From assembly GCA_002699085.1 (NCBI GenBank), contig PAAR01000029.1, positions 1,249 through 65,248 of the forward strand: a stretch of 64,000 bases of DNA, read 5' to 3'. This document shows, piece after piece, positions 10,071 to 54,744 of this stretch. The notes under the pieces are model-generated. The model had not been told where the DNA came from. It worked only from the letters and a program-made list of their open reading frames with translations, and made no database searches. A program made the translations under genes and the position numbers. Every line of letters starts with the position of its first letter. Positions within the stretch are counted from its first letter, which is position 1. The stretch is from Micavibrio sp. (GTDB lineage Bacteria > Pseudomonadota > Alphaproteobacteria > Micavibrionales > UBA9664).

Positions 10071-10158
10071 AAATACATAACCTATTACCATAAATTACTT
10101 GATCTGTGCTCATGCTATTTGCTAAAGATTAGATATAAACTGCTGCAATAGAGGCTAT

Positions 10159-11256: not shown

Positions 11257-11359
11257 GCATAGTCTTAATAACGCCCGTAGAATGTTTTTATTGCTATAAT
11301 ATGAAAAACTTGCTATTGGCATAATTATAAAATTTCGTAAACCTATAAGGAGAATTAAA

Positions 11360-12457: not shown

Positions 12458-12491
12458 AAGACTCATTAGATAGTTAAAAGGAACTTTGTAA

Positions 12492-14369: not shown

Positions 14370-14382
14370 CACGCCATTTCGA

Positions 14383-33293: not shown

Positions 33294-35177
33294 ATGGTGT
33301 GTATAAATAAGGCAGCTTGTCTGCTTTTAGCTTTTTTACTAGCTTTATTACCAAGTTTTGCGGCATATGCCGAAGCAGGGTACACGCCCATTCCTCGCTA
33401 TGCGCAGCATGATAATGCAAATCAGCAAAATCAACCGCGCCCTTATATTGATTACCAACCTTCTCCCGCATATGAAAAAGCAGTAGAGAAACTAAGGCAA
33501 CAAACACCTCAAGCTACACAAGCAAATATTGTACCCGCCCAATATATACCGGCACAAGCTGAAGGTGCCCAAAATGATGTTTATGGCTATCAATTACCCG
33601 GTGCACTTTCTGGTTACAGCAACATAGCAAGTAAAGCTGTTTCTGCACTTCAAGAATTTTTTAGCTTTATTCTAGAAACATTGCAGGTCGTTTTTGGCTT
33701 CTTAGATAATAGTACACAAGACGAAGTTGCCAATAACTCACAAGCTGCTGACAAGCTTCAAACCGAAGCAATGGCAACAGATTCCTTTTATGCGACACGT
33801 GATGCAGCAATACTCGACGCGCAACAAAGCGATAACATACATAGAGCTATGGAAAAGGACGCTTTTAACGCTAAACTGCCTCTTGACGTTGCCTTTAATT
33901 CAGGACTTGTCGGCTTAATGTGTAGAGACAATTCTACACGTCAAGGCGTCTCTGCGGCTTTGGTCGCTGGAAAGGTCACCGTTGAAGGATTGGCTGAAAT
34001 TCAATCTGATAAAAATGCTCAAACCTCGACTGGTTCATATAGTGCCGCTAGCGGTGGCGGCGGTGGTGGCGGCGGTACAGGCCCAGATGATTCTGGCAAC
34101 CCAGATGATTCATCTGATGCTAGTAACAAAGAAAATATCATCAATGAAGGACCTGGTGCGGCTGGACCATTAGATGAGATCAATGATCGCTGGGGTACGG
34201 TGCTTCTATTCTGTAACCCAGGTGACCCAAAAGTTGAGAAATCTGGCGATATGAATGGGGCAGCAAAAGCATTTTGTCCAGCAACCTGTTCTGAAGGCCA
34301 AGGTGCTAAATGTAATTACGTTGCCAAAGCCTATAAAGATGCCGCTGGCCGTGATATGCCTGGCTTACTGCCGCCAATTAACGCAAGAGACAGAAAAACA
34401 GGCGGTGCAGGCTCTTTCAAAAAAGACAATACGATTTATAACATGGATACGAGCTATTATAAGGCAATTAATGGTCGTAAAACATGGGGATTAGGCTATT
34501 ACCTGCACATGAATGAAGCTACTGGTAAAGCCGATAAATGGCAAAAAAGATCTTTAGCTTCAGATGAGGCAATCGCCGAATTCTTTTTACAAAATGTTTT
34601 CCGGACGGCAGTAACACCTTTACCACGAAACGTGATTGAGGAATCTATTGACGAAGATACTGGATTACCCAGTCTTGAAGCTGTTGAGTTTTTACTTAAC
34701 CATAAAAGTCTATCAGCACAACGCAGTGTGGCGCAAAATGTCTTTATTAACCAGATCGCTTATAAAAGACCATCACCAGTTGAAAATAGATATTTATTTG
34801 ATCAAGCACAGGACATTCTTCTAGGTAACAAACTTAATGATCCATCAGCAGACAAGCCTCAAGATGCCTATGAGAATTACAAACTTGAAATCATGGGCGA
34901 CCCTAATAAGAAACAAGGGCCTAGCTATGAAGCACAGTTAGAATATTTGGCAAAATTGGTCTATTTGAATCCGGATTTTATTATCTCAAAAGCTCCAGAA
35001 GATTTTGAAAATAAAATGCAGCTCATGGCAGCTACTAAAAATATTGTAACTTACGATCTTCTTGAAAGCATGAAACGTCAAGAAGCTGTGATGGCCACTA
35101 TATTAGAAGTGCTCCTGACACCAAAACAACGTGAGTTAGAAGAAAAAAGCGAATTAATATCACAAGGTGGCCAATGA
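33294..35177 (+). CDS. secreted protein of unknown function, paralog A (T4BSS/pilus-associated)
   Basis: Signal peptide MVCINKAACLLLAFLLALLPSFAAYAEA. It shares several collinear blocks with the next ORF, e.g. PSYEAQLEYLAKLVYLNPDF...RQEAVMATILEVLLTPKQRELEE. Confidence 0.7.
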   Translation: MVCINKAACLLLAFLLALLPSFAAYAEAGYTPIPRYAQHDNANQQNQPRPYIDYQPSPAYEKAVEKLRQQTPQATQANIVPAQYIPAQAEGAQNDVYGYQLPGALSGYSNIASKAVSALQEFFSFILETLQVVFGFLDNSTQDEVANNSQAADKLQTEAMATDSFYATRDAAILDAQQSDNIHRAMEKDAFNAKLPLDVAFNSGLVGLMCRDNSTRQGVSAALVAGKVTVEGLAEIQSDKNAQTSTGSYSAASGGGGGGGGTGPDDSGNPDDSSDASNKENIINEGPGAAGPLDEINDRWGTVLLFCNPGDPKVEKSGDMNGAAKAFCPATCSEGQGAKCNYVAKAYKDAAGRDMPGLLPPINARDRKTGGAGSFKKDNTIYNMDTSYYKAINGRKTWGLGYYLHMNEATGKADKWQKRSLASDEAIAEFFLQNVFRTAVTPLPRNVIEESIDEDTGLPSLEAVEFLLNHKSLSAQRSVAQNVFINQIAYKRPSPVENRYLFDQAQDILLGNKLNDPSADKPQDAYENYKLEIMGDPNKKQGPSYEAQLEYLAKLVYLNPDFIISKAPEDFENKMQLMAATKNIVTYDLLESMKRQEAVMATILEVLLTPKQRELEEKSELISQGGQ

Positions 35178-36745
35178 TGAAGCACACATTTCATCATGGA
35201 TTACTATGCCTCACCCTTGTTTTTATGATGGCCTTTGTGCCTGTTGCACAAGCCTATGCGGCCGGTAATTACACCTCTTTCCAAACATTAAAAGAGGAAG
35301 AGAAACCGACGAAACAAGGCGTTGTATATAAATATGATGAATGTCCTCATAAAACGGAAAATGGGGAATGCGCCCAATCACCTAATGCAAAACCTGTTTT
35401 TTATACCACAGCAGCTAATGTTATTAGCGGTGGTATTGCTATTATGCAGCTTCTTACTGAACTTCTTGGTGAGTTCTTCAAAAAGGTTATCATTAAAGGC
35501 CTTATAAGTTTTCTTACTAACATTGTGACAACATTTTTCAGCTTCTTGACCGATTTATTTGATTTTAAGTCGCAGGCCTTGCGTCAAAATGAATCGAAGC
35601 GTCAAAATGAGAAACTGGCTTTTGAAGCGCTTAATAAAACACGCGAAGCCGCTTTACAAGATTCCATACATAGTCGTGCAATCCACGATAGCCTAGAAAA
35701 AGACGTTTTCAATGCGACAAAAGATACTGGTCTTTCTGAACAAAGTGGTGAAATGGCCCTGCAATGTAAGATTAATACGCAATATAAATACCAATCTAGT
35801 GCCTTTGCGACCTCCGTTAATACAGCAACCATCAATGCTGATAAAATGGCCGACAATGCTGGCGCCCAAGAAGGACCTCTGGAGAACCTTGTAAGAAGAG
35901 CAAAAGACTGTCTTAACTACAGCGAAAATGATCTTAATGGCAGTGTTTCAAAATATGTTGAAGAATGTAAAGCAAAATACGGCGCCGCTATAATTGCCAA
36001 AATTAATGCCGACGCTTTACAAGGAGAAAGCACAGATTTCCACTCTAAATGTGATGACGGCGATGATCTTAGCATTACTAATTTTATAACCAACCCTACC
36101 TATATTGAGCAAGAAGACCCAGGTTGTGGCAAACCAAATACTGGCGCAGAAGAAAAATATAAGCTCAAGGGATTCATAGATCACTATACTGGTGAGCGGG
36201 CAACTACACCCATCACGGAACAGGCCATCAAAGACAGCTATAACGAGGAAACTGGCATGTTGGGTCAAAATGAAATTGAATATATCTTAGAAAAGAAAAC
36301 ATTCGACTCGCTTACCTCAATTGTTGATAACTCGCTCAACCATCTTTTAGCCAAAGACAAAGAACCCGTTCTGCGTAGCAATAACGACGGAGAAAGACAA
36401 TTCTTAACCAATGAAATTAAAGAGATCATTGGTGATGAAGGCGCAACTGACAAAAAATATGCTGCGTATACAGGTAATGAAAACTATTTACCCAGCTATG
36501 AAGGGCAGTTGCAGTTCTTGGCCAAAATCCAATATACAAACCCTGCTTTTGAATCAACTAACTTTAGTAAGCTAGGTTATGAAGGCGGGATGCTAAGAAA
36601 GAGTGCCACAGAGAGCATGGTTTTATACGATGCCCTTCAATCAGCGCAGCGCCAAGAAGCTATAATGGCAGCTATTCTGGAAGTCCTCCTGCAGCCAAAA
36701 CAAGAAGAGCTTGAAGAATTGTCCGCAGAGTTAAGCGGCAATTAA
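35174..36745 (+). CDS. secreted protein of unknown function, paralog B
   Basis: Signal peptide ...FMMAFVPVAQAYAAG. ATGA start/stop overlap with paralog A. Shared blocks include PSYEGQLQFLAKIQYTNPAF...RQEAIMAAILEVLLQPKQEELEE. Confidence 0.7.
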   Translation: MMKHTFHHGLLCLTLVFMMAFVPVAQAYAAGNYTSFQTLKEEEKPTKQGVVYKYDECPHKTENGECAQSPNAKPVFYTTAANVISGGIAIMQLLTELLGEFFKKVIIKGLISFLTNIVTTFFSFLTDLFDFKSQALRQNESKRQNEKLAFEALNKTREAALQDSIHSRAIHDSLEKDVFNATKDTGLSEQSGEMALQCKINTQYKYQSSAFATSVNTATINADKMADNAGAQEGPLENLVRRAKDCLNYSENDLNGSVSKYVEECKAKYGAAIIAKINADALQGESTDFHSKCDDGDDLSITNFITNPTYIEQEDPGCGKPNTGAEEKYKLKGFIDHYTGERATTPITEQAIKDSYNEETGMLGQNEIEYILEKKTFDSLTSIVDNSLNHLLAKDKEPVLRSNNDGERQFLTNEIKEIIGDEGATDKKYAAYTGNENYLPSYEGQLQFLAKIQYTNPAFESTNFSKLGYEGGMLRKSATESMVLYDALQSAQRQEAIMAAILEVLLQPKQEELEELSAELSGN

Positions 36746-36759
36746 GAAAAAACCTCAAA

Positions 36760-37782
36760 TTAAAAAAGACCAGTTTCGCCTAAACCACTATCATCTGTTA
36801 AAGGCACAGGTGCTGCATCATTAAGGGGTGTCGTTGCACGTGGTGCATTGGTTGGTGCTGTCATATTAGCACCTGGAAAACCCGAAAATTGCGCTTCTAA
36901 ATCACCTAAAGACGTCGGAATTTCACGTGGCACGGGTGCTTCATTTCTATTAAGAGGCGCAGGGTCAAGTCGGATGATTTCTCCTGCTTTCGTCACTTCC
37001 ATTCGGCCCGGTTGTACTTTTGTCACACGCGACCCATCAGGCAGCGTTTCATCAACCTTAACTGTACGACGAAAATCGCCATTTTCTTTACTGCCTAAGA
37101 CAGCCTCACAAATACCTGAAAGACAAAAAATTTCTATCCACTCGTAATTAGATGTTACTGCCACGGGTTTTTTCTTCAATGAAGATGACATATCACCTTT
37201 GGCCGCTTTTTCAATCACAGCATCAAGCGCACTTTGTGCTGTTTCATTCGAGTTCAGATTTGGCCGCAACGCATTTTGCAACGCCGCAACTTCATCGACA
37301 GCTGATGCTTTCTGAGCTTTTTGTTCATCTAATTCTTTTAAACGCTGTTCTAATACATCTTCTGTCCCAGGGTATACCTCTGGATAAGCATTAAAACACG
37401 GTACATTAGCCGGCACTTGCTCACATAAACCACGTGGTGGCTGCGGTGTCGTGTAATTTACACCAATACTGGTATAAGCCTTTTGAATCTCACTCACTTG
37501 TTTTTGCCAAGTAATGAGGTTCTCAATTAAAGCAATCTGATATTGCAATGTAATTTTGTCTGCTAAATATTTATTCTGAATCTTGTATTCAGTAAAATTC
37601 TCGGCGTTTAAAACATTGTCTCGATTAAGCTCAGCTTCAATAGGTGGTACTGAAATATCAGGTAATTTTGTTGTAAGACGTTTACTATTCTGAGCATAGG
37701 CATCAGCACTACATAATACCGCCATAACAGCAATAGAACATACTGAAAATTTAAACCATTTTTTATGCCAATGAATATTCAT
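36760..37782 (-). CDS. secreted coiled-coil protein, last gene of pilus operon (PilP-like C-terminal domain?)
   Basis: Signal peptide ...VLCSADAYAQ. The C-terminus VKVDETLPDGSRVTKVQPGRMEVTKAGEIIRL loosely parallels the C-terminus of the PilP-like ORF at 46157. Confidence 0.55.
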   Translation of the reverse strand: MNIHWHKKWFKFSVCSIAVMAVLCSADAYAQNSKRLTTKLPDISVPPIEAELNRDNVLNAENFTEYKIQNKYLADKITLQYQIALIENLITWQKQVSEIQKAYTSIGVNYTTPQPPRGLCEQVPANVPCFNAYPEVYPGTEDVLEQRLKELDEQKAQKASAVDEVAALQNALRPNLNSNETAQSALDAVIEKAAKGDMSSSLKKKPVAVTSNYEWIEIFCLSGICEAVLGSKENGDFRRTVKVDETLPDGSRVTKVQPGRMEVTKAGEIIRLDPAPLNRNEAPVPREIPTSLGDLEAQFSGFPGANMTAPTNAPRATTPLNDAAPVPLTDDSGLGETGLF

Positions 37783-37802: not shown

Positions 37803-39215
37803 TTACGGATTAATAAAACAGCCATCATCACAATTACCAAAATTATTGAAGGTCACATTGCCCTTATTCTCAATATCAATTGCTGACAGCGTATTGTTGA
37901 TAGTGGTCGTTTCACTTAATGTATCAATTGTCGCCAAACTACCTGCCCCATGATCAAATGATGCAGGGCCTGCGGTGGCTGGGTTATCTTGCACAACCAA
38001 TGTATCGCCACGAATCTCCCGTTGCAGGTTAAGTTGTAATGTATTTGGATTGGCGGCATTATTAATTAAGTTACTTACCGCCATACCGGCAACCGAATCC
38101 ACGTTTAAAGCACCGCCATTAAGGTTAACTGTGCCTGACACAAGATTCTCCGCATTAAATTCATTGGTTGTTACACGTTCAACTTGAAGCTCCTCGGTAG
38201 TCATAGACTGACCAATTTCCAGAGTATTTTGAACGGCCAATTCACTGCGTCCGACGCCATAAGCCGAACGAGTTGCAGGCGTTAAAATCGTATCGCCCAA
38301 TGCAAAGCCTTGCGCCCGCACCTGCCCATCTACCGCAAAATTACCATTAATGTCAGTCACGCCGCCAACATAAGCCGATCCTTGCACAATCATATCCTGC
38401 GTAACAGACAAATCTCCCGCAACATTAATATTATCGACCCCCACAAGATTATTACTCGCCATATTTAAATCAGAATTCATCACATGTAACTCAGGACGTG
38501 TGAATTGCGGTGTACGATACAAATAATCACCAAAAACATCTTCTTCATTAATGTATGAATAATGCGCAATATAGGCTTCATCTGTTGAAATACCTGTTGC
38601 TGTTGCGGCTGTGTGCCAGCTTGTACCTGCCATATCGGCAAAATTAACATGCCAAATGCCGAAAATCCCACGAATAGGGTCATTCGCAGCGACTAATACA
38701 TCATCATAATAAAGACCGCCTTGGCCACCCATTAACTCAGCCGTAGGCTTAGCACGGTCTGTTGAAATAGGGTCTTCAGAAAGAATTAAAATATCCAAGG
38801 CTCTAGTGGCGGCAGTATCTGCCACCAATACATATATCTCCAAATTAGTCTTTAAAGGACTATAGGCACTGGCATTTTGTGCAATAACAGAGCTTGGCTC
38901 AAGACCCAAGCCAACATCACCTGCCGTTAAAAAAGTAAATGGTATTTCATAAACACCCGCCGTGGTAAATCCAGGATTAACAGCGCGTAAATAAATAGCG
39001 TCGAACATTACTGGGTCTTTCAACATTTCCTCAGTCGCCGTTGCAATCTGCTCAATATGCTCTGCCGCGTTACCTGCAAGTTCATCTCTGGCTAAATTTT
39101 GTAAAGCAATAGATAGCCCAATCAACAATGTTGTCGCCACAATCAATGAGAGCAGCAATTCCAACAGCGTTAAACCAGACTCATGATGTATGTTGTTGTA
39201 TCCCTGTTTTAGCAT
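37803..39215 (-). CDS. giant pilin-headed protein 3 (PilV-like putative pilus tip adhesin)
   Basis: Prepilin N-terminus MLKQGYNNIHHESG/LTLLELLLSLIV (Glu5 present). Motif LYRTPQFTRPELHVMNSDLNMASNNL, an N/G/V/T-rich repetitive C-terminal half and a terminal Cys pair CDDGC. Confidence 0.7.
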   Translation of the reverse strand: MLKQGYNNIHHESGLTLLELLLSLIVATTLLIGLSIALQNLARDELAGNAAEHIEQIATATEEMLKDPVMFDAIYLRAVNPGFTTAGVYEIPFTFLTAGDVGLGLEPSSVIAQNASAYSPLKTNLEIYVLVADTAATRALDILILSEDPISTDRAKPTAELMGGQGGLYYDDVLVAANDPIRGIFGIWHVNFADMAGTSWHTAATATGISTDEAYIAHYSYINEEDVFGDYLYRTPQFTRPELHVMNSDLNMASNNLVGVDNINVAGDLSVTQDMIVQGSAYVGGVTDINGNFAVDGQVRAQGFALGDTILTPATRSAYGVGRSELAVQNTLEIGQSMTTEELQVERVTTNEFNAENLVSGTVNLNGGALNVDSVAGMAVSNLINNAANPNTLQLNLQREIRGDTLVVQDNPATAGPASFDHGAGSLATIDTLSETTTINNTLSAIDIENKGNVTFNNFGNCDDGCFINP

Positions 39216-40714
39216 GGATCACCACCTGATGTCTGACAGAATACTTTTGTACCGACACCCATCGATTTTGTTACATTCGTCGTCCCTAAAACGTTCATGT
39301 TGCCAGATACATCTAAAGCCCGAGTAACACGCAAATCACTAATGTTGGTATTTGTATCTTCAATAATAGCCTGTAAAACAACAGACCCTGCGGCATTAAC
39401 TGTTTCAAAGGTATTCGTAGCAGCCCCATTTCCAACCATCTGGAAGGCACCGGCATCAACATTAATCGGCTGAGAGCCTGATGCTGCGTTCATATTCATC
39501 GTAAAGGCTGTCACTTTACCAAATTGCGCAGGATCAGCACCCGGTGCCGCTTTACTCACGATAACATCTTGGAATTCTGCTGATGTAAAGGTAACGGCCG
39601 TATTACCTGACCCTTCAACAATAATATCTTCTGCAACAACCGCACCTGTATAAGCCGGTGCCACTGCCGATACATCAAGAAAATCGACATCATTTTGCAC
39701 AAGGATAGCGGGATTTGTAGCGTCCGAGAAATTGACAACCATATTACCGCCGACAATATCACACCCTGCACCAACAACGCCGCCACTGCCGTCAAATGCA
39801 CAACCAGACCCATCAGGACCAATAACAGCATGGTTAATTGATACAGCATTATTAAATTGCGCCATTTGTGAAATATTGAGTGCATTGGCAAAAGTACCCT
39901 CCGTGAAACCTTGTGCCAAAATTTCAGTATTGCCAGCCACCTCCAAACGATCGACAGTCATCGCTTTGGCACCTGTTAAACTATAATTATTCATATCAAG
40001 ATTAGCTTGCATAACATTCGCATCGACAGCTGTCGCTATAGGAATCTTATACAAAACATCACTATTCATAGATTCAGCCTGCGAAATCCTGCCATACGCC
40101 GCCAAATAACCGCCTTCATCCGCATCTGGAACAGAAGTACCCGCCGCGACAAATGGCGCTCTATTGATGCTCCATTGACCAGAAAGACTTGTAATATCGT
40201 TGGGCGTGATAATGCCGCTTGAATAACCCAGTTTAGCACCACCGTAACTCGCAATTTTACGCAAACGTGCATCTGGTATATATGCCGTTCCAGCTGCTGG
40301 ATCTTCACTAATAGTCAAAACTTCAATCGTTAAACCATTTGTAAAATTAGTCCCTAAATTACGAATATAAACAGTAATATCTTGCTGAAACCTATTCGTT
40401 TCTTTAAAGCCTGCCGCTAAAAAATTATCTGTCTTCAATGTTGCTAATGGCACTTCGCCAATATCATTGGTATTAGGAATATTAACAGTCACAATATCCG
40501 AGAAATTAGCGGCAACATAATTTTCTGCAGCTTGCTGTACATCAAGCATTTGAGCTGCAATACGCTGGTTCGAGACACGTACAGCACTATCTTTCAGAAT
40601 AGCCGTTGCTGCTATGCCAACTAATGCCAGAACGCCTACAACGAGCAGAAGCTCTATCAAAGTAAAGCCCTTCTCTCTTTTTAATCGACCTAAATTGCAC
40701 ATTCTCTTATCCAT
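39209..40714 (-). CDS. giant pilin-headed protein 2 (PilV-like putative pilus tip adhesin)
   Basis: Prepilin N-terminus ...RLKREKG/FTLIELLLVVGVLALVG. Motif LYKIPIATAVDANVMQANLDMNNYSL and a terminal Cys pair CQTSGGDPC. TAATG overlap with the upstream ORF. Confidence 0.7.
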   Translation of the reverse strand: MDKRMCNLGRLKREKGFTLIELLLVVGVLALVGIAATAILKDSAVRVSNQRIAAQMLDVQQAAENYVAANFSDIVTVNIPNTNDIGEVPLATLKTDNFLAAGFKETNRFQQDITVYIRNLGTNFTNGLTIEVLTISEDPAAGTAYIPDARLRKIASYGGAKLGYSSGIITPNDITSLSGQWSINRAPFVAAGTSVPDADEGGYLAAYGRISQAESMNSDVLYKIPIATAVDANVMQANLDMNNYSLTGAKAMTVDRLEVAGNTEILAQGFTEGTFANALNISQMAQFNNAVSINHAVIGPDGSGCAFDGSGGVVGAGCDIVGGNMVVNFSDATNPAILVQNDVDFLDVSAVAPAYTGAVVAEDIIVEGSGNTAVTFTSAEFQDVIVSKAAPGADPAQFGKVTAFTMNMNAASGSQPINVDAGAFQMVGNGAATNTFETVNAAGSVVLQAIIEDTNTNISDLRVTRALDVSGNMNVLGTTNVTKSMGVGTKVFCQTSGGDPC

Positions 40715-42747
40715 TAAAACGGTGTCCCCGGGTCAATATCTTCAATTTCAGGACAATCACCTGAACAAACTGCCTCAGGATCGCTACCACTAGCACGCTG
40801 TATATTTGTCAAACCTGAAAAGACAGTATCACCAAACACCTGAACACCCTCGTCCGATACAACATTATCTGCTGTTAATGTTTGGCCATTAGCGACCGTT
40901 AAACGACCCATGATTGTTTCATAGCTATCTGGGCCGATTGTTGCCGCCCCATACAAACCACTACCCTGATCGCCCAATACAAAATTTTCAACATTCAAGC
41001 CGTTGGAAAAATTTGCTGACTGAGCGTTAATATTATTACCGTTCACACGGAAGTCACGTACTGTTAAGCCAATATTATCGCTCGTTGATAAGAGTGAGGG
41101 GTCTATATTCATCCCTTCTGGTAATAAAATACTGTTTAATCTGACTACCGTTTGACCCGATGCCTTGGCCGCATCAGCAGAAAGAACCTGCCCATCAACT
41201 GTCGTTCCTTCAGCAATACCAATATTTATTGTGGCATTCGGTGCTTGTAATTCAGGCGTAATAATATTGGCTTGTGAGGCTAATAAATTACCCGATATAC
41301 GCATATAAGATGTACCGCCAGAGCCTGTACTAACACTACCTTGTACATTCACATTCTGGTTAAAATAAGCTTGCTGAATCGGCTGAATATAATTGAAATC
41401 AGGATCATTAAATATTTTAACGTTACTATCAACATTGAGTGAACCACCAAGCGCCACGACATCATCAATATCTCTGTTGCCCGCAATAGCATCAATATTA
41501 ACAGAATCCTCAATACCATTATACGTTTCACCTGCAACAACCACACCTGTAGGCGAACCATCCAAGGTTACACTAACATCCCTTGAGGTAGCGCCATCAA
41601 TAGCTCTATCACGTTGATCTGCCGCTATAATACGCTGAAGCGTTAAATTAGATATATTCATGATATTGCGACGATTATCTGCAAATGTTAATGGGTTATC
41701 TCGTATCGTTGGACACAATCTTGAATCAACCTTTTGAATCCCCCCCGCACCATCATCTTCATTGAAAGCAATTGTGTTTTCGCCACCACCATCACCATAA
41801 TAATTTGGATCACCTACATCCTCTATTGCCACATTTGCTTTACAATTCGCATCCACAACATCACCCATATATAAATCTGTAAGCATTGTCGCATAGGTAG
41901 TATTTTCTGGTTGTGGGAAACGCATAACAGCACGCTCATCAAAACGTACAGACTTCCATGCAGGGATAAGCATTTCACCTGGTTGGAATGCTGCGCCTGT
42001 TAAATTATTAAAATCAGCATCGCTTGTACACCCTGTATCCCATGCTGAGACAGCCGGTGTGCCATTACAATTATCAGAAATATTCACCCCTGCACCGTTA
42101 AATAATGGCGCCGAAACAGGTACTTCTAAATTCTGCAAAACGCGTGATAAACGTATGGCATCACCTGCACTTACAGCTGGCGACCCGCCTAATGTTACAT
42201 AGGCTGTTGCAACAGTTGTTGCTAAATTTGAGTCCCCATCAATAGGTGAGTTTGCTGCATACACAGTAATAGGCTGACGTAGAATCGTGCTTTCAGTTAA
42301 ATCGACCGCATTCGCATCCTGATTAACAAAACTAATCGGTAAATAACCTGCCGCAACTAATTGCGCCACAGTAATTTGTTGAGGTGCGCCCGCTGCATTA
42401 ATATCTAACGCTTGCTTATTGAACTGAGCATCTAATATACCATCCCCATTTTGATCGATCGCATTGGCGATCATATAAGCTAAATCTCTTGGCGTATCTG
42501 GAATATTATCCGCATTTGTATCTTCTACAAATTGTGACAAAGAATTATTACGTACCATAAGTCTTGCAGCCTGTGCGATCTGCTTTATCTGCCATGCCAC
42601 AGCCCGTAAGGTACGTTGATCCCTAGCATCCTTATTTGCGGTTGCAATAAAAGCAATAATAAAGGCAAAAGCGATCGTAATCACAAGCATCACAGCCAGT
42701 GAAAAACCTGATTCTTTCTTTCTGCATTGCTTAATCTGATTTAGCAC
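40714..42747 (-). CDS. giant pilin-headed protein 1 (PilV-like; lacks Glu5)
   Basis: N-terminus ...CRKKESG/FSLAVMLVITIAF, where position 5 is Val rather than Glu. Motif VMRFPQPENTTYATMLTDLYMG and a terminal Cys pair CSGDC. 677 aa. Confidence 0.65.
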   Translation of the reverse strand: MLNQIKQCRKKESGFSLAVMLVITIAFAFIIAFIATANKDARDQRTLRAVAWQIKQIAQAARLMVRNNSLSQFVEDTNADNIPDTPRDLAYMIANAIDQNGDGILDAQFNKQALDINAAGAPQQITVAQLVAAGYLPISFVNQDANAVDLTESTILRQPITVYAANSPIDGDSNLATTVATAYVTLGGSPAVSAGDAIRLSRVLQNLEVPVSAPLFNGAGVNISDNCNGTPAVSAWDTGCTSDADFNNLTGAAFQPGEMLIPAWKSVRFDERAVMRFPQPENTTYATMLTDLYMGDVVDANCKANVAIEDVGDPNYYGDGGGENTIAFNEDDGAGGIQKVDSRLCPTIRDNPLTFADNRRNIMNISNLTLQRIIAADQRDRAIDGATSRDVSVTLDGSPTGVVVAGETYNGIEDSVNIDAIAGNRDIDDVVALGGSLNVDSNVKIFNDPDFNYIQPIQQAYFNQNVNVQGSVSTGSGGTSYMRISGNLLASQANIITPELQAPNATINIGIAEGTTVDGQVLSADAAKASGQTVVRLNSILLPEGMNIDPSLLSTSDNIGLTVRDFRVNGNNINAQSANFSNGLNVENFVLGDQGSGLYGAATIGPDSYETIMGRLTVANGQTLTADNVVSDEGVQVFGDTVFSGLTNIQRASGSDPEAVCSGDCPEIEDIDPGTPF

Positions 42748-42804
42748 AATATTTAGCCCTTTTCCCTATATCTATAGTACACCATAAAAGGGTTAAAATT
42801 TAGT

Positions 42805-42840
42805 GTAAAAAACCCTTGAAAATAAGGATTCTCAAGGGTT
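42805..42840 (-). terminator. putative intrinsic terminator/attenuator after major pilin gene
   Basis: On the minus strand: CCCTTGA-(12 nt loop)-TCAAGGG followed by TTTTTT. It lies in the 124-nt gap between pilS and the first PilV-like gene. Confidence 0.5.
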
Positions 42841-42871
42841 TATGACAATTTTTTAATAAAGGGACGTTAAA

Positions 42872-43411
42872 TTAGATAAATGTCCAAGCAATTGTGTTTG
42901 TTGCACCTGCTTCACAGCTTCCCTGCACATCAGAAACAGTTGGGTCTGTGTACGTATCGCCCTGAATCGTTACATCAATAAAGTCCGAATCAGAAGACGG
43001 TGTAAAGGCTGTACCTAACTGAACACATGCCTCTTGAGGTAAATTAACTAAAGATATCACAAAAGTTGCCGCATCTGCTGCACCCACTTCGACAGATATA
43101 TCATTACCCCATGGGTCACGTACTTGACCTGTAGCCGCATCAATAACATTCCGAGCAGGAAAGACACCTGCCTGTGCTGCGATAATACTTAAATCAGCCC
43201 CTGTTGAGCCATATGTTGATTGATTCTGGTAAAGCGTTTGAATACCAATTTTTGATGAATTCAACAATCTGACAGCAGAACTAACATTATTACCTTGTGT
43301 CACAATTCTGTACGTCGCAAGACCTGCCAAAAGCAACAAAGCACCTACGCCAATAACAAGTAAAAGCTCTAGCAAAGAGAAACCCTTTTCTTGTGATGGG
43401 TGATATTTCAT
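42872..43411 (-). CDS. pilS: type IV (IVb-like) major prepilin
   Basis: 179 aa. Leader MKYHPSQEKG then FSLLELLLVIGVGALLLLAGLA (class III signal, Glu5). Two Cys residues in the C-terminal region could form a D-region disulfide. Confidence 0.85.
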   Translation of the reverse strand: MKYHPSQEKGFSLLELLLVIGVGALLLLAGLATYRIVTQGNNVSSAVRLLNSSKIGIQTLYQNQSTYGSTGADLSIIAAQAGVFPARNVIDAATGQVRDPWGNDISVEVGAADAATFVISLVNLPQEACVQLGTAFTPSSDSDFIDVTIQGDTYTDPTVSDVQGSCEAGATNTIAWTFI

Positions 43412-43458: not shown

Positions 43459-44532
43459 TTATGCAGATGTGGAAGCATTAATTTGCTGGAAAACACCAAA
43501 AAAGGCCATAATTAACATACCAATTGTAATAGCGATCATGAATAGAACAACCGTATTAACAACCTTCATCGAGACATTTACTTCCTCAATAAGATCATCT
43601 ACCCAATTAAACGTAATTTTCGAAATATTATGCTCAAAACCACGTAATTGAGCATAAATTTGCATATCTGCAATTAACCCCTCATCTGGAAATTTATATC
43701 CTGCCTTTTGTAAAGCATCTCCGAAATTAGCCCCCGAAGACATCCACTTTTTCACTGCCTTTATCCGAACAGCCAAATAAGGGTCAGCACTTCTTGCAAG
43801 ACGAGTCAAAGACATTTCATCTAATTTAACACCCGCATTCATCAATGATGAAACAGACAATAAAAAGGCCGATCCCTGCCACATACGATAAAAATTGAAC
43901 GGCACTATATTCTCAAATGGCAAGCGGGACATACCTGACCATCTGGGTAAAGCATAACTAATACCAATAATCGCTAGAATAGCCGTTAATAAAATAAAGA
44001 AACCAAACTCACGAATAAATGAAGAGACATTAGCCATTAACTTCGAAACACCCGTCCATTCTTCAACAGGGATAATCTCGGCGAAAGTAGGAATAACCTG
44101 ATAAGAAGATAGCACTAATGCGCCAATCAACATCATCACCAGCACAGCAGGATAAGCACTCGCCGTAACAATAGCCTTTTTCACCTTACCTTGTTGTTCA
44201 ACAGCCGTTTCTGCATTCTTCAGCGCCATAATTAAATGGCCAGAATCTGCGCCTGTTTCAATCAAAATCGCTTCAGAGCTTGGAATATATGGCCCCATAC
44301 ATTTCCCAAAATTCACACCATTGGCAACAGAGCGTCGCCACCGTGCATAGAGCTGCCCTAATACCGATCCACGACTTTTAGCAGCAACTTTTTGTAGCTG
44401 AGATAGCGCCATATCCAACGCCACACCATTATCCAATAACTGTGATAATTTGGAATAGAAGCGCAAACGCTCTTTAGCATTAAACTCAAATTTAACTGAG
44501 GTATCAAAAAACCATTTTTCCAAACCACTCAT
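43459..44532 (-). CDS. pilR: type IV pilus platform protein (GspF/PilC family; R64 PilR-like)
   Basis: 357-aa polytopic protein with the duplicated GspF-type architecture. It lies directly downstream of the GspE-family ATPase. Confidence 0.8.
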   Translation of the reverse strand: MSGLEKWFFDTSVKFEFNAKERLRFYSKLSQLLDNGVALDMALSQLQKVAAKSRGSVLGQLYARWRRSVANGVNFGKCMGPYIPSSEAILIETGADSGHLIMALKNAETAVEQQGKVKKAIVTASAYPAVLVMMLIGALVLSSYQVIPTFAEIIPVEEWTGVSKLMANVSSFIREFGFFILLTAILAIIGISYALPRWSGMSRLPFENIVPFNFYRMWQGSAFLLSVSSLMNAGVKLDEMSLTRLARSADPYLAVRIKAVKKWMSSGANFGDALQKAGYKFPDEGLIADMQIYAQLRGFEHNISKITFNWVDDLIEEVNVSMKVVNTVVLFMIAITIGMLIMAFFGVFQQINASTSA

Positions 44533-44535
44533 ATA

Positions 44536-46110
44536 CTACCCTCGATCAGGTACGGCAAAAGGTCCAACAATACGCTCGGCATCAACAGGATCTACTTGAC
44601 CTGCCATCACACGATCCACCATTTGTTCGTTCATCGTACGGCCATTTAAGTGAGTCAACCAATACCGTTCTGCAGAACGTTTGTCGTCCTTTTTCACAAA
44701 ATTCATAAAATCATCATCTGGCAAAATAATCTCACCAACCAAGCTTCTTCCTACATAGCCAGCCCCACGACCACAGGATTCACAGCCATGTGGATTACGA
44801 CGACGCAAACGCTCAATCGGTATTTGCACTGATTCCAAACGAGACATCAGATTAAGATTAAGCTCATTCTCTTTGATAGGCGTTGAACAAGATGGGCACA
44901 GAACTCTGACAAGACGCTGGGAGATAAGGCCTGTCATCAAACTCGGATCACCGAGTTTGTAACTTTCAACCTTCAAGTCACGCAAACGAAACGGTATCGT
45001 AATCGCATCATTCGAGTGAAGTGTCGTCCATACTTGGTGACCTGTCATCGCCGCTTCAAAGGCAAGCTGAGCTGAGGCGGGGTCACGAATCTCACCGATC
45101 ATCAAACGATCAGGGTTCGACCGCAGTGATGCGGCGATCGCTTTGGTAAAAGCCGCCGAACGCTGTTCTGCCGTTGAAGCATTAACAACAGGCATCTGCA
45201 CCGCCCCTGGAATAGGATATTCAGGTGGATCCTCAACCGTATAAATTGCGATATTATAACTATGCTCTTGTAAAATAGAGATAATATTACGCTGCAACGT
45301 TGTTGATTTACCATGACCTGTCGGCCCTGCTACAATGTTAATACCAAAGGGCTTAGAGCGTAAATACTCAAAATCTTCTAAATGCTCTGGCGTAAAACCA
45401 AGTGCGCCCACATCACCCGCTGTCTTATCATCCGTGCTGTAAAGCAAACGCATAATCATCGCCCGACCGTTATATACTGTCGGGTTGAACTGAAGACGCA
45501 TAGAGATCACACCTTCAGGCAGTTGTAAATCTTTACGATTAGAAATACGTGCGCCCTGATATTCATAGGGCTGATAGTTCACATCCGAGGCATCAGCCAT
45601 CGCAAAAGCTGCCGCACAGAAACTATGGCCATATTCAGGTGGCCACTCAGCAATCTGCGTCATCGACCCGTCAATACGTGCTCTGACCAAACAAGAAGAT
45701 TCATAAACCACAACGTGTACGTCTGATACACGACGTTTAGCCATATCCCCTATAAGAGATAGCACCTCACGACGCATTCTCGCCTCATCTTGACGGCCTC
45801 TCGTATCCATAATCCCTGACGCATCCGTGTAACAAAGCTGTACACGGGTAATATCAACGACTTCCATATCAGGCTCGCCAAATCCACCCATGCGAATCTC
45901 AGCCAAAAGACTCAAGACTTTAGGATTATTGACATGCGATTTAGAAACAAAGAACTTACCATCCGTAAAGTAAGCAGCAATTTGACGTAGCTCCTCACCA
46001 CGATCAAAAGGGCCACCCTGCACCGTTAAAGGTAAACGATCATCCCACTCTTTAAGCTTACCGCTTGTGGCTCTATCTTTCGCTTTTCCTGTTGCTGTTA
46101 ATTCAACCAT
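44536..46110 (-). CDS. pilQ: type IV pilus assembly ATPase (GspE/PilB family; R64 PilQ-like)
   Basis: Walker A GPTGHGKST, Asp/His boxes (MIGEIRD, TGHQVWTTLHSN) and the tetracysteine motif CPSC...CESCG. Confidence 0.9.
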   Translation of the reverse strand: MVELTATGKAKDRATSGKLKEWDDRLPLTVQGGPFDRGEELRQIAAYFTDGKFFVSKSHVNNPKVLSLLAEIRMGGFGEPDMEVVDITRVQLCYTDASGIMDTRGRQDEARMRREVLSLIGDMAKRRVSDVHVVVYESSCLVRARIDGSMTQIAEWPPEYGHSFCAAAFAMADASDVNYQPYEYQGARISNRKDLQLPEGVISMRLQFNPTVYNGRAMIMRLLYSTDDKTAGDVGALGFTPEHLEDFEYLRSKPFGINIVAGPTGHGKSTTLQRNIISILQEHSYNIAIYTVEDPPEYPIPGAVQMPVVNASTAEQRSAAFTKAIAASLRSNPDRLMIGEIRDPASAQLAFEAAMTGHQVWTTLHSNDAITIPFRLRDLKVESYKLGDPSLMTGLISQRLVRVLCPSCSTPIKENELNLNLMSRLESVQIPIERLRRRNPHGCESCGRGAGYVGRSLVGEIILPDDDFMNFVKKDDKRSAERYWLTHLNGRTMNEQMVDRVMAGQVDPVDAERIVGPFAVPDRG

Positions 46111-46156
46111 TTATCTATTGTACCTTATTTAACTCAATGATAGCTACGTCGATTTA

Positions 46157-46741
46157 TTAACGTGCCCATTGTAAGTCAACTTTTCCTTTACCACCAAGGG
46201 TCACACCGCTCCTTGAAATTGACTTAACTGTGTAACCATCTGAAAGGGCATCCCCATTACGAACATTGGCAATTTCACCGTCTTTACTTGTGATACGTGC
46301 ACGCAAATTATTGTGAATGCCGTAAATATCATTAATTAACCACGGGGTTCTTGTGTCTTCGGCAATCTCGACATCTGCATTTTTGTCACGACTATAATCT
46401 TCACTCATATCATCCAAACCAAGATCATTAGCCGATATTGGTGGCAAAGCAGCCAGAGCAGCGTCATTCGGCATGGCTGGCATAGAGGATGGGCTATTAA
46501 TACCCAATAAAGAATCTGTATTTTTTGCAGACAGTTCATTCAATTGCTCAAGCAACTCAGCGCGCTTTAAACAAAGTGCAAAACGCTCAATATCAGACTG
46601 TACGCTCGCTAAGTCATTCGGCGTTTGTTTTGATGCCACATTAGGGCTCGGGCAAAGGTCATCACCCAAACTCTGTGCTTGAACGGCCTGCCCGGCACAT
46701 AAAAACACTATTAAAAAAGCTGCTATTATTAATTTTTTCAT
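46157..46741 (-). CDS. pilP: type IVb pilus biogenesis protein, PilP-like
   Basis: Signal peptide and small size. C-terminal beta-domain ...ANVRNGDALSDGYTVKSISRSGVTL. It sits between the PilO-like gene and the ATPase, as in the R64 pil operon. Confidence 0.5.
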   Translation of the reverse strand: MKKLIIAAFLIVFLCAGQAVQAQSLGDDLCPSPNVASKQTPNDLASVQSDIERFALCLKRAELLEQLNELSAKNTDSLLGINSPSSMPAMPNDAALAALPPISANDLGLDDMSEDYSRDKNADVEIAEDTRTPWLINDIYGIHNNLRARITSKDGEIANVRNGDALSDGYTVKSISRSGVTLGGKGKVDLQWAR

Positions 46742-48105
46742 TGTGGCACGCCTCCAGCCATACGTAGGATTATATTGGTTTTATACGTCCAATCCTGCCT
46801 GTTTAAATTATATTCTATCATCTCAAAGCTCAAACCTGGAATATTAAAATATTCTGCTGCCTTTGTCGGCGGGGTACTTGTTTTAAGTTCGACAGACAAA
46901 AAGGGTGGTTTTTTTGTTTCTGATTCATTTGTAATAAGCGTCGTTACAGCACTTTGCGCACGACGACGCACAGATGATGCAGTTTTCTTATCTTCATCCG
47001 GCACACGATATTGCACATTCATTTGCCCTAAATCGCCAAAACGGTCATTTACAAGTAAAATAGCACGATCACGATCAAGTGGTATATTCTGTTCTTTATA
47101 TTGATCGAGACTTGGCAATAATTTTGTAGCTGTGAACAACCTTGCGCCATCATACGTATGCGTCACACCTGGTCCAAAACGAGAAATATAGGGCCTAATA
47201 TTATCTAGGTCACCCCCATTGCTATTCCAAGAGACCGTTACAATCCGCCCATCACATTTAATTGATTCAATTGTCCACATCGGCAAAGGTAGAACGATAT
47301 CTTCCATACCTTTCAAACATGCAAAAACAACGAAGCTAGGTGTTGGCAAGGACACGTCTCCAAAACGTAACAATGGATTAAGTTGCTGGCCTACCTCTGG
47401 TCTTGGCGGCGGTGTCAATTCGTTCGCTGTGCCCAATGCAAGCTGTTTTGCTTGCCGTGGTTGTGGCAATAAAGAAGGTAAGATTTGTGAGGTCAACGTG
47501 CCTAAAAATAAAATACCTACCAGGATAGCCGCCAAAACAACGGCGATATCTTTGTTACGGCGACCCCCAAAAAGTGCATCGAGATTTGCAGGCTGTAAAG
47601 TAGCATTGGGAATCTCATCAAAGATCTTATTTAAGCTGACTTCACCAGCATTATCTTCGAATTCCCAGTTATCAGGTACAAAAGCACGTGGCCAACGATA
47701 GCCCGCCGCTTTTTGCAAAAAGAATTGATACGCCTCTTCTTCATCATCAAACAGAATGTCGCCATCTGGCGCAATTGCATCGGCATGAACAGCGACATAC
47801 CACCAGCCATTTTCAGCCACAAACACACCATGCCATTCACCAACCATTACATCAGCAGCCGTTGAGGCAGCAGCAGGTAATCCACGCTTATGACCCTGCT
47901 CTAAATAGCCGATACCATTTTGATTAACAACTGTATTTCTAATAACATAAAAGTCGGCGCCAACTTGTTTGGCCCGCTGACGTGGTGCTTTTGGGTCTTC
48001 TTCATCTTCCGAGGTCAACCAAAGCAAGCCGACAGCATAATCCTGTCCAGCATAGCGCATAATGCCAAGTTTATCTTTTTGTTTCTGGACTGCTTCGCTG
48101 CTCAT
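46738..48105 (-). CDS. pilO: type IVb pilus biogenesis protein, PilO-like (bitopic)
   Basis: 455 aa: cytoplasmic N-domain, one TM (IAVVLAAILVGILFLGTLT) and a periplasmic C-domain. The position after the secretin matches R64 pilO. Assigned mainly by synteny. Confidence 0.5.
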   Translation of the reverse strand: MSSEAVQKQKDKLGIMRYAGQDYAVGLLWLTSEDEEDPKAPRQRAKQVGADFYVIRNTVVNQNGIGYLEQGHKRGLPAAASTAADVMVGEWHGVFVAENGWWYVAVHADAIAPDGDILFDDEEEAYQFFLQKAAGYRWPRAFVPDNWEFEDNAGEVSLNKIFDEIPNATLQPANLDALFGGRRNKDIAVVLAAILVGILFLGTLTSQILPSLLPQPRQAKQLALGTANELTPPPRPEVGQQLNPLLRFGDVSLPTPSFVVFACLKGMEDIVLPLPMWTIESIKCDGRIVTVSWNSNGGDLDNIRPYISRFGPGVTHTYDGARLFTATKLLPSLDQYKEQNIPLDRDRAILLVNDRFGDLGQMNVQYRVPDEDKKTASSVRRRAQSAVTTLITNESETKKPPFLSVELKTSTPPTKAAEYFNIPGLSFEMIEYNLNRQDWTYKTNIILRMAGGVPQ

Positions 48106-48251
48106 GCGTCTCTGATGTCTTTGTACTTAAATATTTTACGAATCTTAACCAATATGAATATTCTACCAGCGGATAGACAAAACATCTACACCCTATTATA
48201 CGGCAAACGCATATATCTAAAGCACATTAAGAGCCATTTATTTAAAAATGA

Positions 48252-49811
48252 TTAAAAACCTTGTTCAGAAACACTTAATGGCTCTTCAGGTAAAACCTCT
48301 GCCGAAATAAGAAGAACCGTAATATTTCTGCCACGGTCATAATTACGTGTGCCGCCCAACAACCAACTTGGCGTACGCGCATCTGTAATCCCTGACTGTC
48401 TACGCTCAAAGCCAGCCAAAACAAGCGTTTCACCTTGTGACAACACCGCATTTTGTAAGAAACCAGTCGTGTCAATTTGCGGCAATTGAATTTGTTGCGT
48501 GTCTGTACCAAATGTCTGGAAAGGCTGCTCCGCATCAGTAATGGAAATCGCTAAGCGCATCAAAATACGATTATTCTCGATCACACGTGGCAATATATTC
48601 ATCGTTAAACCAACATCAATTGTACCAGGTTCAAGTGATGTCCCTGTACTATCACCACTCGCCGAAGCCGAAATACGCTCAAGATAGGTGATCTGACGAC
48701 CAATTTGTAGCGGTGCTGGCTGATCTGACAGCGTTACGATAGAACCAGAATTAGCGATCGTTACATGTGATACATTTTCTGCAGCACGTACAATAGAAGC
48801 AAAATCATCTATCGTTCCAGCTACTTGTCCGTTAATAGCCTGAGACTGCCGCAAAATACCCGCTGACAATGAACCATCAATCGAGCTTAGCTGATATGGC
48901 TGCTTATCGATCACATCTTGCAGCTCTAAAAACAGGTCAAAGCCATATTCAGAAGAATTTTGCACTTGAACATTTAACACCTTCACAGCCACCGCAACAC
49001 GGCGTAGACGTAATGAGTTTTGTTGACGCAAATATTCTTCCACACGATCGACCAAGGTTGGCGAAGCGCTCACAGTAATTGTCCCAGTTGAACGTGACAA
49101 TGAAATACGGCCACGACTATCGAGAATATTATTCAGAACTTCTTCGATCTCATCCCAAATTTGAATTTCTGTCTTATCGTCAATCGTTACAGACGGTAGA
49201 CTTCCGCCACCTGAAGCAACACCCGTTTCAAGCGAACCGCTTAAATCAATGCCTGTGCCAAGCGCATGCAACATGAATGTTTTTGTTACTTCTTGGAATA
49301 TTTTAATCACGCCATTTTCATAGCTCCAGCCAACGTCAAACGCATCGGCAATTTGATTAAGAAGCTGTGTTAATGATCCTTGCCATACAACACGTCCACC
49401 AGTTACCTGCAAGCCATCCGATGGTAAGAAACGTTGATCCAGAGTGTTGCTACCACGGTCAAACACTACACGAATATTTGTTACCTTTTGAATCTCTGAA
49501 CGAAGCTGCGGCAATGAAAGTGGCTCTGCAAAGGTTACCACAACACTGTCTTTTGCATTAAACTTTGCTGGCAGCGGATCGCCTTTAGCCAATGCCACCG
49601 CCTTACCGCCATACCATGGACGGTCGTCAACCATTAAAGATTTAGACAATTCTTTTGTTGGCTCAATTTGACGCAACGCTTTTTCGGCAATGACACCATC
49701 TTTATCAAGATCGCCTTTAATTGCTGCATGTTGAGCGCAAGAGCTCATAAAAAAAGCGGCAAAAAGAAAGGTAAATATTTGAAATGTCTTTGTGAATTTA
49801 GATAATGTCAT
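48252..49811 (-). CDS. pilN: type IVb pilus secretin lipoprotein (R64 PilN / BfpB-like)
   Basis: Lipobox FFMSSCA. C-terminal secretin domain (…GETLVLAGFERRQSGITDARTP...GRNITVLLISAEV). Confidence 0.8.
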   Translation of the reverse strand: MTLSKFTKTFQIFTFLFAAFFMSSCAQHAAIKGDLDKDGVIAEKALRQIEPTKELSKSLMVDDRPWYGGKAVALAKGDPLPAKFNAKDSVVVTFAEPLSLPQLRSEIQKVTNIRVVFDRGSNTLDQRFLPSDGLQVTGGRVVWQGSLTQLLNQIADAFDVGWSYENGVIKIFQEVTKTFMLHALGTGIDLSGSLETGVASGGGSLPSVTIDDKTEIQIWDEIEEVLNNILDSRGRISLSRSTGTITVSASPTLVDRVEEYLRQQNSLRLRRVAVAVKVLNVQVQNSSEYGFDLFLELQDVIDKQPYQLSSIDGSLSAGILRQSQAINGQVAGTIDDFASIVRAAENVSHVTIANSGSIVTLSDQPAPLQIGRQITYLERISASASGDSTGTSLEPGTIDVGLTMNILPRVIENNRILMRLAISITDAEQPFQTFGTDTQQIQLPQIDTTGFLQNAVLSQGETLVLAGFERRQSGITDARTPSWLLGGTRNYDRGRNITVLLISAEVLPEEPLSVSEQGF

Positions 49812-49913
49812 CTGTCTATCTATTGTTTTACTTAACGAATCTTATCTTAGCTTACACAGGGTTACGGCTTCCGACAAACAGAATTTTTAGATTTTTCACT
49901 TTAAATAATATGT

Positions 49914-54327: not shown

Positions 54328-54744
54328 TTATTCAATCGAAATCAGTCCTTTTTTTTGCAAGGCCTCGACAACCTTCTTTTTATAGCGTCTACCATAATAT
54401 GGCGTGCGTGAGTGATAATGGGCAATAGCTTGGGATAGAGACCCTGTTTCATTAATATGTTGGCGCAAGATCCAAGCCGAAACATTTATATTGGTACAAG
54501 GATCATCTTTAACCCAGCGGATAGCGGTTGCTTGGTCAACATTCCAATATTTAGCCAATTCGGGAATCCAAATTGTATTAATTTGCATTGGCCCCAAATC
54601 ATAACTACCATTTTTATTTTTAACGGCTTGGCCAACCTGACCGCCCTCAACGGTTTGAATACCCATTAAAACAGCTGGTGGCACTTGATACGTCTGCGAC
54701 GCAATGAACAGACATGATGCTAGAACCTGCGCTATCATACACAA
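54328..54744 (-). CDS. specialised lytic transglycosylase (SLT domain; IagB/VirB1/R64 PilT-like)
   Basis: Catalytic-Glu context GIQTVEGG, then YDLGPMQINTIW and AHYHS motifs. Confidence 0.85.
   Translation of the reverse strand: MCMIAQVLASCLFIASQTYQVPPAVLMGIQTVEGGQVGQAVKNKNGSYDLGPMQINTIWIPELAKYWNVDQATAIRWVKDDPCTNINVSAWILRQHINETGSLSQAIAHYHSRTPYYGRRYKKKVVEALQKKGLISIE

Follow-up and report, generated by a model that had tools for sequence, protein, structure and literature searches.

Three paralogous PilV-like minor pilins in a chromosomal Dot/Icm-type cluster of Micavibrio-like bacteria: a possible heteromeric tip of a type IVb pilus

What is the role of three large pilin-headed proteins that are encoded side by side, at a position where conjugative plasmids of the IncI type carry a single pilV gene? 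The question is raised by a 64-kb window (the whole stretch of DNA analysed here) from a marine metagenome-assembled genome (MAG) labelled 'Micavibrio sp.'. In this window, an R64/IncI-type type IVb thin-pilus operon (PilL/TcpQ-like protein, PilN, O, P, Q, R, S) lies directly 5' of three large open reading frames (ORFs) on the same strand, here denoted P1, P2 and P3 (Table 1), and the operon together with P1-P3 is embedded in a chromosomal Dot/Icm-like type IVB secretion cluster. A preliminary description of the locus took the three proteins for a hard-wired alternative to the shufflon that varies PilV. On the evidence of their sequences, P1, P2 and P3 are old, diverged duplicates of one another and belong, as minor pilins of the PilV superfamily, to an R64-like thin pilus. 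We favour, with moderate confidence, the reading that these anciently duplicated, non-redundant PilV paralogues act together as a single heteromeric complex that primes the pilus and makes up its tip. A fixed three-part tip is preferred over the alternatives because the set and order of the genes are invariant across related loci, the paralogues form separate clades, and Glu5 has been lost in P1 only.

The affiliation with PilV was evaluated with the Pfam model of the shufflon constant region, Shufflon_N (PF04917), a hidden Markov model check that the preliminary description had proposed. P2 passes it (34.1 bits against a cut-off of 27.5), covering about two thirds of the profile (positions 8-233 of 324). 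P3, at 24.7 bits (E 2e-5), does not reach this threshold; 5 of the 11 members of its family match at E<=1, and the P1 family yields no match in any of its 23 members. P1 is joined to the other two by profile comparison. When family profiles were compared with hhalign, P2 and P3 aligned from the N-terminus to a shared internal motif at E 2.5e-41, and P1 aligned with P2 (E 1.1e-13) and with P3 (E 7.6e-14), in both cases with a probability of 98.1% and with an alignment that stops at the same motif. At the level of single sequences, P2 and P3 are 26% identical over 288 amino acids (aa) (BLASTP, E 8e-8), whereas BLASTP of P1 against P2 and against P3 was not significant, so that the homology of P1 is visible at the profile level only. 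Likewise, tblastn of P2 against annotated plasmid PilV genes gave 27-29% identity across residues 41-279, and the same search of plasmids with P1 gave nothing.

The three proteins accordingly have in common a homologous N-terminal domain of approximately 250-300 aa that ends in the motif. The suspicion that this motif corresponds to the conserved region of PilV was borne out: the resemblance goes far beyond chance, the hhalign alignments end there, and the annotated IncI2 PilV has the same motif at the corresponding place. A PilV-like ORF of a Methylorubrum megaplasmid carries the version LYRFPVPGMPEANRMHADIDMTAHSINNL. Among the 23 P1 sequences, R276, P278, Q279, P280, E281, T287, M288 and T290 of the motif are invariant. 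By this comparison, the shared motif is a PilV hallmark. Pairwise alignment, which had been suggested as a means to locate the boundary between constant and variable parts, places it right after the motif in all three profile pairs.

P1 defines a family of its own. A profile search of 1.84 billion representative proteins recovered 85 clusters (at 50% identity) with E<=1e-30, followed by a clear gap; beyond the gap come 'P1-like' proteins of about 480-530 aa, with ordinary PilV-like proteins following at E 1e-8 to 1e-15. None of the 24 P1 homologues bears a Pfam annotation. P1 is a new, unannotated, Glu5-less branch, a well-bounded family without a Pfam match, whereas P2 and P3 add new members to the known PilV family. 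Two further observations concern P1 and its relatives. The P1-like proteins of about 480-530 aa found in the representative search, outside the window (P0119-P0152), also lack Glu5; several have a hybrid motif, such as MMRFPQPGRPDLNSMMTDLAM, and C-terminal ends like that of P1 (C-x3-4-C-P), and Glu5-less PilV-type proteins may be more widespread than annotation shows. Within the P1 pilin domain, an insertion of about 45 aa contains the loop DQNGDGILD. This loop, with the pattern D-x-N-x-D-G-[IV]-x-D, occurs in 7 of 23 family members and resembles an EF-hand-like calcium site.

According to the preliminary description, all three proteins begin with a class III (prepilin) signal. This is the case for P2 (...REKG/FTLIELLL) and P3 (...HESG/LTLLELLL), which combine Gly at position -1 and a hydrophobic helix with Glu at position +5 (Glu5), a residue that is invariant in the P2 family (E21) and nearly invariant in the P3 family (E19). 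Against the Pfam N_methyl cut-off of 21.2 bits, P2 scores above (26.2 bits) and P3 below (14.5 bits). For P1 (...KKESG/FSLAVMLV) the claim is only partly correct: Gly-1 and the helix are kept, in the same E-x-G/F-S-L context as in the major pilin PilS (...QEKG/FSLLELLL), but position +5 is occupied by Val. Across the P1 family this position is Val, Leu, Ile or Ala, with Glu in 0 of 23 aligned members, and neither P1 nor any of its 22 relatives matches N_methyl. Absence of Glu5 is the feature by which cap pilins such as GspK are known (PMC10191384), and it is found throughout the P1 family, whereas P2 and P3 keep Glu5. Single-chain AlphaFold2 models of P1 and P2, built with the family alignments, had a mean predicted local distance difference test score (pLDDT) of about 55 and were usable for the N-halves alone. 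There they contain the expected pilin-like N-terminal helix followed by a head domain: in P1 (residues 13-265, pLDDT about 80) a long helix at 13-68 that leads into an alpha/beta domain, and in P2 (residues 20-215, pLDDT about 70-86) a helix at 19-69 and then a sheet.

The search of other genomes for the same triplet, also suggested at the outset, recovered P1-P2-P3 in the same order at about a dozen loci. The gene order PilQ-PilR-PilS-P1-P2-P3-X, with one copy of each gene, is found in every related locus that is long enough to show it, namely in L001, L002, L005 (=L016), L006, L007, L011, L012, L013, L015 and L017; the truncated loci L010 and L014 agree with it over the part that they cover. 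The MAGs that contain these loci carry the labels Micavibrio, Pseudobdellovibrionaceae or Alphaproteobacteria, and protein identity to the window goes down to 25-33%. The X position is occupied by a protein of about 330-370 aa with a signal peptide, the orthologue of X340 of the window. By comparison, the IncI2 plasmid and Methylorubrum megaplasmid loci have a single PilV. In a neighbour-joining tree of the N-domains, bootstrap support was 100 for P1, 100 for P1 plus P1-like proteins, 100 for P3, 86 for P2 and 96 for P2 plus P3, and the plasmid PilVs fall outside the P2+P3 clade. Because each paralogue forms its own clade within a fixed set, the duplications must predate the spread of these genomes, with no gain, loss or homogenisation since. 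Two distant loci are bordered by flagellar, SCO1 and PhoH genes, from which we conclude that the system is chromosomal and old in this lineage. In L002 (positions 10001-16126 of that locus), P1-P2-P3-X lie apart from any pil operon, with ABC-F and flavodoxin genes upstream and Dot/Icm genes adjoining, which implies that the four genes can move as a unit. Judged from these loci, an invariant number and order of P1-P2-P3-X is the pattern to be expected of non-redundant partners and not of a variable repertoire.

The expression signals point in a similar direction. Both gene overlaps that had been taken as a sign of translational coupling were confirmed: the P1 stop and the P2 start overlap by 1 nt in TAATG, and P2 and P3 overlap by 7 nt in ATGCTAA. 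The P2 and P3 genes overlap in 5 of the 6 loci with gene calls on record. Between pilS and P1 lies a terminator-like hairpin with a folding energy of -18.1 kcal/mol (z -5.6; 0 of 200 shuffled sequences folded as well). The same intergenic site contains a stem-loop with a U-run in 9 of 10 related loci, but with a different sequence, such that the structure is conserved and the sequence is not. This hairpin probably is an attenuator that limits the expression of the minor pilins, and, jointly with the gene overlaps, it fits a low, coupled expression of P1-P3 relative to PilS.

How the three proteins could act together is suggested by what is known of related filaments. The growth of type IV filaments starts at the tip and proceeds towards the base, and type IVb pili use fewer minor pilins for priming, with a CofB trimer at the tip (PMC10191384). 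The top subunit of a filament has no partner for the salt bridge of Glu5, and P1 would, for that reason, be the cap. P2 and P3 would dock under P1 via their Glu5-bearing helices, in the manner of GspK on GspI and GspJ, and the P1-P2-P3 trio would then prime PilS for polymerisation. With their three different C-terminal modules exposed at the tip, the proteins would present a composite adhesin that recognises the cell targeted by the linked Dot/Icm-type machine.

The C-halves that would make up this adhesin conform in several respects to the preliminary description. After the motif, the proteins do diverge into segments rich in N, G, V and T, and hhalign found no relationship among the three C-halves, which comprise about 380 aa in P1, 256 aa in P2 and 215 aa in P3. 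They also evolve faster: identity between orthologues drops from 57/38% in the N-half to 38/18% in the C-half. The closely spaced Cys pair reported at the end of each protein is present and conserved within each family. The proposed equivalence of this pair to the D-region disulfide of pilins, in contrast, is not tenable because the residues are 3-7 positions apart and are located at the end of the C-terminal module, outside the pilin domain. Support for the 'short periodicity' noted in these segments is weak: a hydrophobic period of about 6 residues reached p<0.05 in roughly 20 of 45 C-halves compared to 2 of 12 control N-halves, in a band that was picked after seeing the data. With respect to the fold, PDB sequence searches with the three profiles retrieved pilin N-terminal helices only. 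Hints of a beta-helix were all below significance: the non-significant top Foldseek matches were GlmU, LpxD and ice-binding proteins; one of the 11 P3 members matched Pfam Bactofilin at E 0.039, and one of the 23 P1 members did so at E 0.35; an LbH match had E 0.0099 in one family member; and one P3 orthologue bears the JGI label 'CcmA (bactofilin family)'. A relationship to tail fibres was considered and dropped after a PHROGs search showed none.

Several observations weigh against a heteromeric tip. R64 makes do with one PilV. P1 has no match to any Pfam pilin model, and its cleavage by a prepilin peptidase, a premise of the proposal, is assumed, the window containing no prepilin peptidase gene. 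The unequal lengths of the C-halves and the lack of a detectable relationship among them do not suggest a simple three-stranded fibre. The AlphaFold2 models of the C-halves consist of short strands with pLDDT <50, and, in Foldseek comparisons of the P1 and P2 models with the PDB, the best matches had E>0.5, none being significant. One can speculate that weak monomer models of the C-halves are also to be expected if these modules fold only within an oligomer. Finally, the fixed gene set would also suit three adhesins for three constant receptors.

The most serious alternative is that of the preliminary description, under which the three proteins are interchangeable tip adhesins, each capping its own subset of pili, and jointly make up a hard-wired receptor repertoire that replaces Rci-driven switching of PilV. 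Part of this proposal agrees with our results: P1-P3 are homologous to PilV, and their N-halves are conserved, whereas the C-halves diverge and evolve faster; in addition, the C-termini of PilV set recipient specificity in IncI plasmids (PMC9045228). Furthermore, there is, as implied originally, no Rci-type switching at this locus: no family of sfx-like repeats or convincing inverted repeats was found between 36 and 44 kb of the window, and no Rci-type recombinase was recognised among the ORFs scanned, so that the locus has neither shufflon nor recombinase. A shufflon remnant was rejected on the same grounds; in the IncI2 reference locus, an integrase comes right after pilV. The interchangeability itself, however, is not supported by the data. 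The variants of a shufflon have one common constant region, and only the C-terminal segments are swapped. Here, the N-halves are deeply diverged, with at most 26% identity and no shared 'constant region', and P1, which lacks Glu5 and the N_methyl signature family-wide, is not equivalent to P2 and P3. A repertoire selected for diversity should gain, lose and recombine copies, but each paralogue is a separate old clade, and neither copy number nor order varies at about a dozen loci, the most distant of them with about 25% identity. In addition, the translational coupling suggests joint synthesis. We consider this alternative unlikely rather than implausible.

A different possibility is that only P2 and P3 are subunits of the pilus and that P1, although of PilV-like ancestry, is an assembly factor, either bitopic in the inner membrane or periplasmic, or else a surface protein, anchored by an uncleaved helix. 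The absence of Glu5 and of any N_methyl or Shufflon_N match in all 23 members, the failure of tblastn to find P1 in plasmids, the extra conserved Cys residues and the lineage-specific insertion are all in accord with such a function. Nevertheless, P1 keeps Gly at -1 in the context E-x-G/F-S-L of the major pilin, is predicted by AlphaFold2 to have a pilin-like helix with an alpha/beta head, and is homologous to P2 and P3 as far as the PilV motif; moreover, the lack of Glu5 is a known signature of cap pilins, for example GspK (PMC10191384). A non-pilin P1 therefore appears quite improbable. The idea that P1-P3 have nothing to do with the pilus and are secreted or surface adhesins encoded beside the pil operon by chance, for which one could cite the C-halves without a known family and the L002 triad located away from the pil operon, is scarcely credible given the class III-type N-termini, the PilV homology, the position directly after pilS in at least 10 loci and the fact that even the L002 triad is still beside Dot/Icm genes.

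With the heteromeric tip as the preferred reading, the locus can be compared to known systems, of which the closest is PilV of the IncI1/IncI2 plasmids (R64, R721, TP114). It has the same operon position, after pilS in pilL-N-O-P-Q-R-S beside an I-type/Dot-Icm secretion system, an N-terminal pilin domain, the motif LYR...P.LN.M...L.M..NN, a similar size (458 aa) and a G/N/S/T-rich region after the motif. This size also qualifies the statement that P1-P3 are 'giant' proteins, 3-4 times larger than ordinary minor pilins: the ratio is correct, but 'giant' fits only P1, IncI2 PilV itself having 458 aa. Unlike the plasmid genes, P1-P3 are three paralogous genes without sfx repeats or Rci, they are chromosomal and lineage-wide, and one of them, P1, is without Glu5 and is not recognised by the Pfam family model. 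No structure of PilV is available, and its position and mode of action on the thin pilus are unresolved (PMC9045228).

The GspI-GspJ-GspK complex of type II secretion systems (T2SS) and the priming complexes of the PilH/I/J/K type in type IVa pili resemble the triad in that several minor pilins are encoded together. In GspI-J-K, a complex that is scarce compared to the major pilin, the largest subunit lacks Glu5 and caps the filament (PMC10191384), a parallel to P1. In contrast to GspI-J-K, P1-P3 all derive from one PilV-like ancestor, and each has a C-terminal module of 200-380 aa. P1-P3 do not belong to the GspH/I/J/K or PilH/I/J/K families, because the NCBIfam matches are limited to the N-terminal helix and are far below the thresholds (gspH 22 bits vs 80, gspJ 13 vs 65). 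A second parallel is provided by CofB, TcpB and LngB of enteric type IVb pili, which passages in PMC6048534, PMC9565799 and PMC10191384 describe as large minor pilins that combine a pilin head with C-terminal domains rich in beta structure, form a tip trimer and start assembly. The same passages place a secreted partner of about 340 aa, encoded nearby, in the CofB and TcpB systems (CofJ, TcpF); X340 is alike in position and size only, and it has no match in Pfam, NCBIfam or the PDB, its comparison with PilP being not significant. In the known cases a single gene product forms a homotrimer, whereas here three distinct genes are involved, and neither profile searches of PDB sequences nor Foldseek against the PDB gave a sequence or fold match to the solved CofB or TcpB chains. 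A further comparison is with the Kil (Tad) pilus of Myxococcus, a predator pilus for which a passage in PMC12075869 reports the proposal that several minor pilins adapt the tip to the prey. Kil, however, is a Tad pilus of type IVc with unrelated sequence, and its sets are alternative, whereas P1-P3 are a fixed triad.

As for earlier reports, the Micavibrio genome paper mentions dispersed pil genes but not this system (PMC3189940), the paper on the bacteria-killing type IVB secretion system (T4BSS) of Pseudomonas putida never mentions pili, and our literature searches found no description of the Glu5-less P1 branch or of a conserved triad in a chromosomal Dot/Icm setting. The P1 branch and the conserved PilV triad in this chromosomal context are thus new.

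Table 1. Positions of the genes and sequence elements of the 64-kb window referred to in the text
Feature	Position in window	Strand	Description
P1	40714-42747	minus	677 aa, GTG start; divergent PilV-like minor pilin, proposed cap subunit
P2	39209-40714	minus	501 aa; PilV-family minor pilin with Glu5
P3	37803-39215	minus	470 aa; PilV-family minor pilin with Glu5, sister paralogue of P2
PilV motif, P1	41863-41928	minus	VMRFPQPENTTYATMLTDLYMG; residues 274-295, end of conserved N-half
PilV motif, P2	39977-40054	minus	LYKIPIATAVDANVMQANLDMNNYSL; residues 221-246
PilV motif, P3	38445-38522	minus	LYRTPQFTRPELHVMNSDLNMASNNL; residues 232-257
Terminal Cys pair, P1	40753-40767	minus	CSGDC; C661/C665, invariant in 23 sequences
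Terminal Cys pair, P2	39212-39238	minus	CQTSGGDPC; C493/C501, nearly invariant
Terminal Cys pair, P3	37818-37832	minus	CDDGC; C462 invariant, C466 nearly invariant
Loop DQNGDGILD, P1	42430-42456		residues 98-106
Terminator-like hairpin	42804-42847	minus	inverted repeat between pilS and P1; 14-bp stem, then U6
PilS, type IVb major pilin	42872-43411	minus	179 aa; Pfam PilS 1.2e-12, Bundlin 1.6e-8, N_methyl 24.2 bits
X340	36760-37782	minus	340 aa, Sec-type signal peptide; gene next after P3
Pilus machinery genes, block	43459-51320	minus	upstream of P1-P3
PilR platform	43459-44532	minus	Pfam/NCBIfam, T2SSF
PilQ ATPase	44536-46110	minus	Pfam/NCBIfam, T2SSE
PilP	46157-46741	minus	Pfam/NCBIfam, pilP_fam
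PilO	46738-48105	minus	Pfam/NCBIfam, PAP_PilO
PilN secretin	48252-49811	minus	PilN family type IVB secretin, 3.4e-60
PilL/TcpQ-like protein	49914-51320	minus	TcpQ match
Dot/Icm-type T4BSS cluster	21400-56900		
627-aa paralogue	33294-35177	plus	signal-peptide-like N-terminus
523-aa paralogue	35174-36745	plus	signal-peptide-like N-terminus
SLT lytic transglycosylase	54328-54744	minus	edge of cluster
DsbG/DsbC-like protein	55929-56903	minus	edge of cluster
Glyco_transf_29 ORF	57830-58915	minus	Pfam match, E 2e-15

The genomic surroundings complete the picture. The Dot/Icm-type cluster encodes DotB, DotC, DotD, IcmL, IcmK, IcmE, IcmG and IcmJ, a TraQ-like gene and an IcmB-like protein of 995 aa, and on either side of it are housekeeping genes (cytochrome bd, acetate kinase, cytochrome c maturation genes and an ABC-F protein). 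No integrase, relaxase, coupling protein, Rci-type recombinase or prepilin peptidase was recognised among the ORFs scanned in the window. An origin of the cluster as a mobile element was rejected in view of the housekeeping flanks together with the lack of an integrase and a relaxase in the window. Between the P1-P3 triad and icmL, two adjacent, overlapping genes on the opposite strand encode paralogous proteins (BLASTP E 2e-24) that belong to no known family; similarly sized genes are found at this place in locus L006. At the edge of the cluster, where Table 1 also lists an SLT lytic transglycosylase gene, there is a thiol:disulfide interchange protein of the DsbG/DsbC type (E 1e-24), which could act on the Cys pairs conserved in the pilins. 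Another ORF matches Glyco_transf_29, a sialyltransferase family that is unusual in a bacterium.

The cultured members of the Micavibrio-like lineage are epibiotic predators. Extending the heteromeric tip to the biology of these bacteria, one may envisage a chromosomal Dot/Icm-type injection machine that is guided by a type IVb pilus, with a tip consisting of an obligate heterotrimer of P1 (as the cap), P2 and P3, with three fast-evolving modules and perhaps with recruited X340, that is, a prey-recognition device built from conjugation parts and not a conjugation pilus. This broader scenario, which draws on the taxonomy of the MAG and on the lack of a relaxase in the 64-kb window, we regard as rather doubtful. 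Be that as it may, a naturally split PilV, with a Glu5-less cap and two Glu5-bearing partners, offers a testable model of priming and tip building in type IVb pili. If true, it would connect type IVb systems that have a single minor pilin with type IVa pili and T2SS, whose tips comprise several pilins. That the system is chromosomal and linked to Dot/Icm genes, with no relaxase in the window, and belongs to a lineage known for predation further points to a possible re-use of a conjugation-type pilus for cell targeting.

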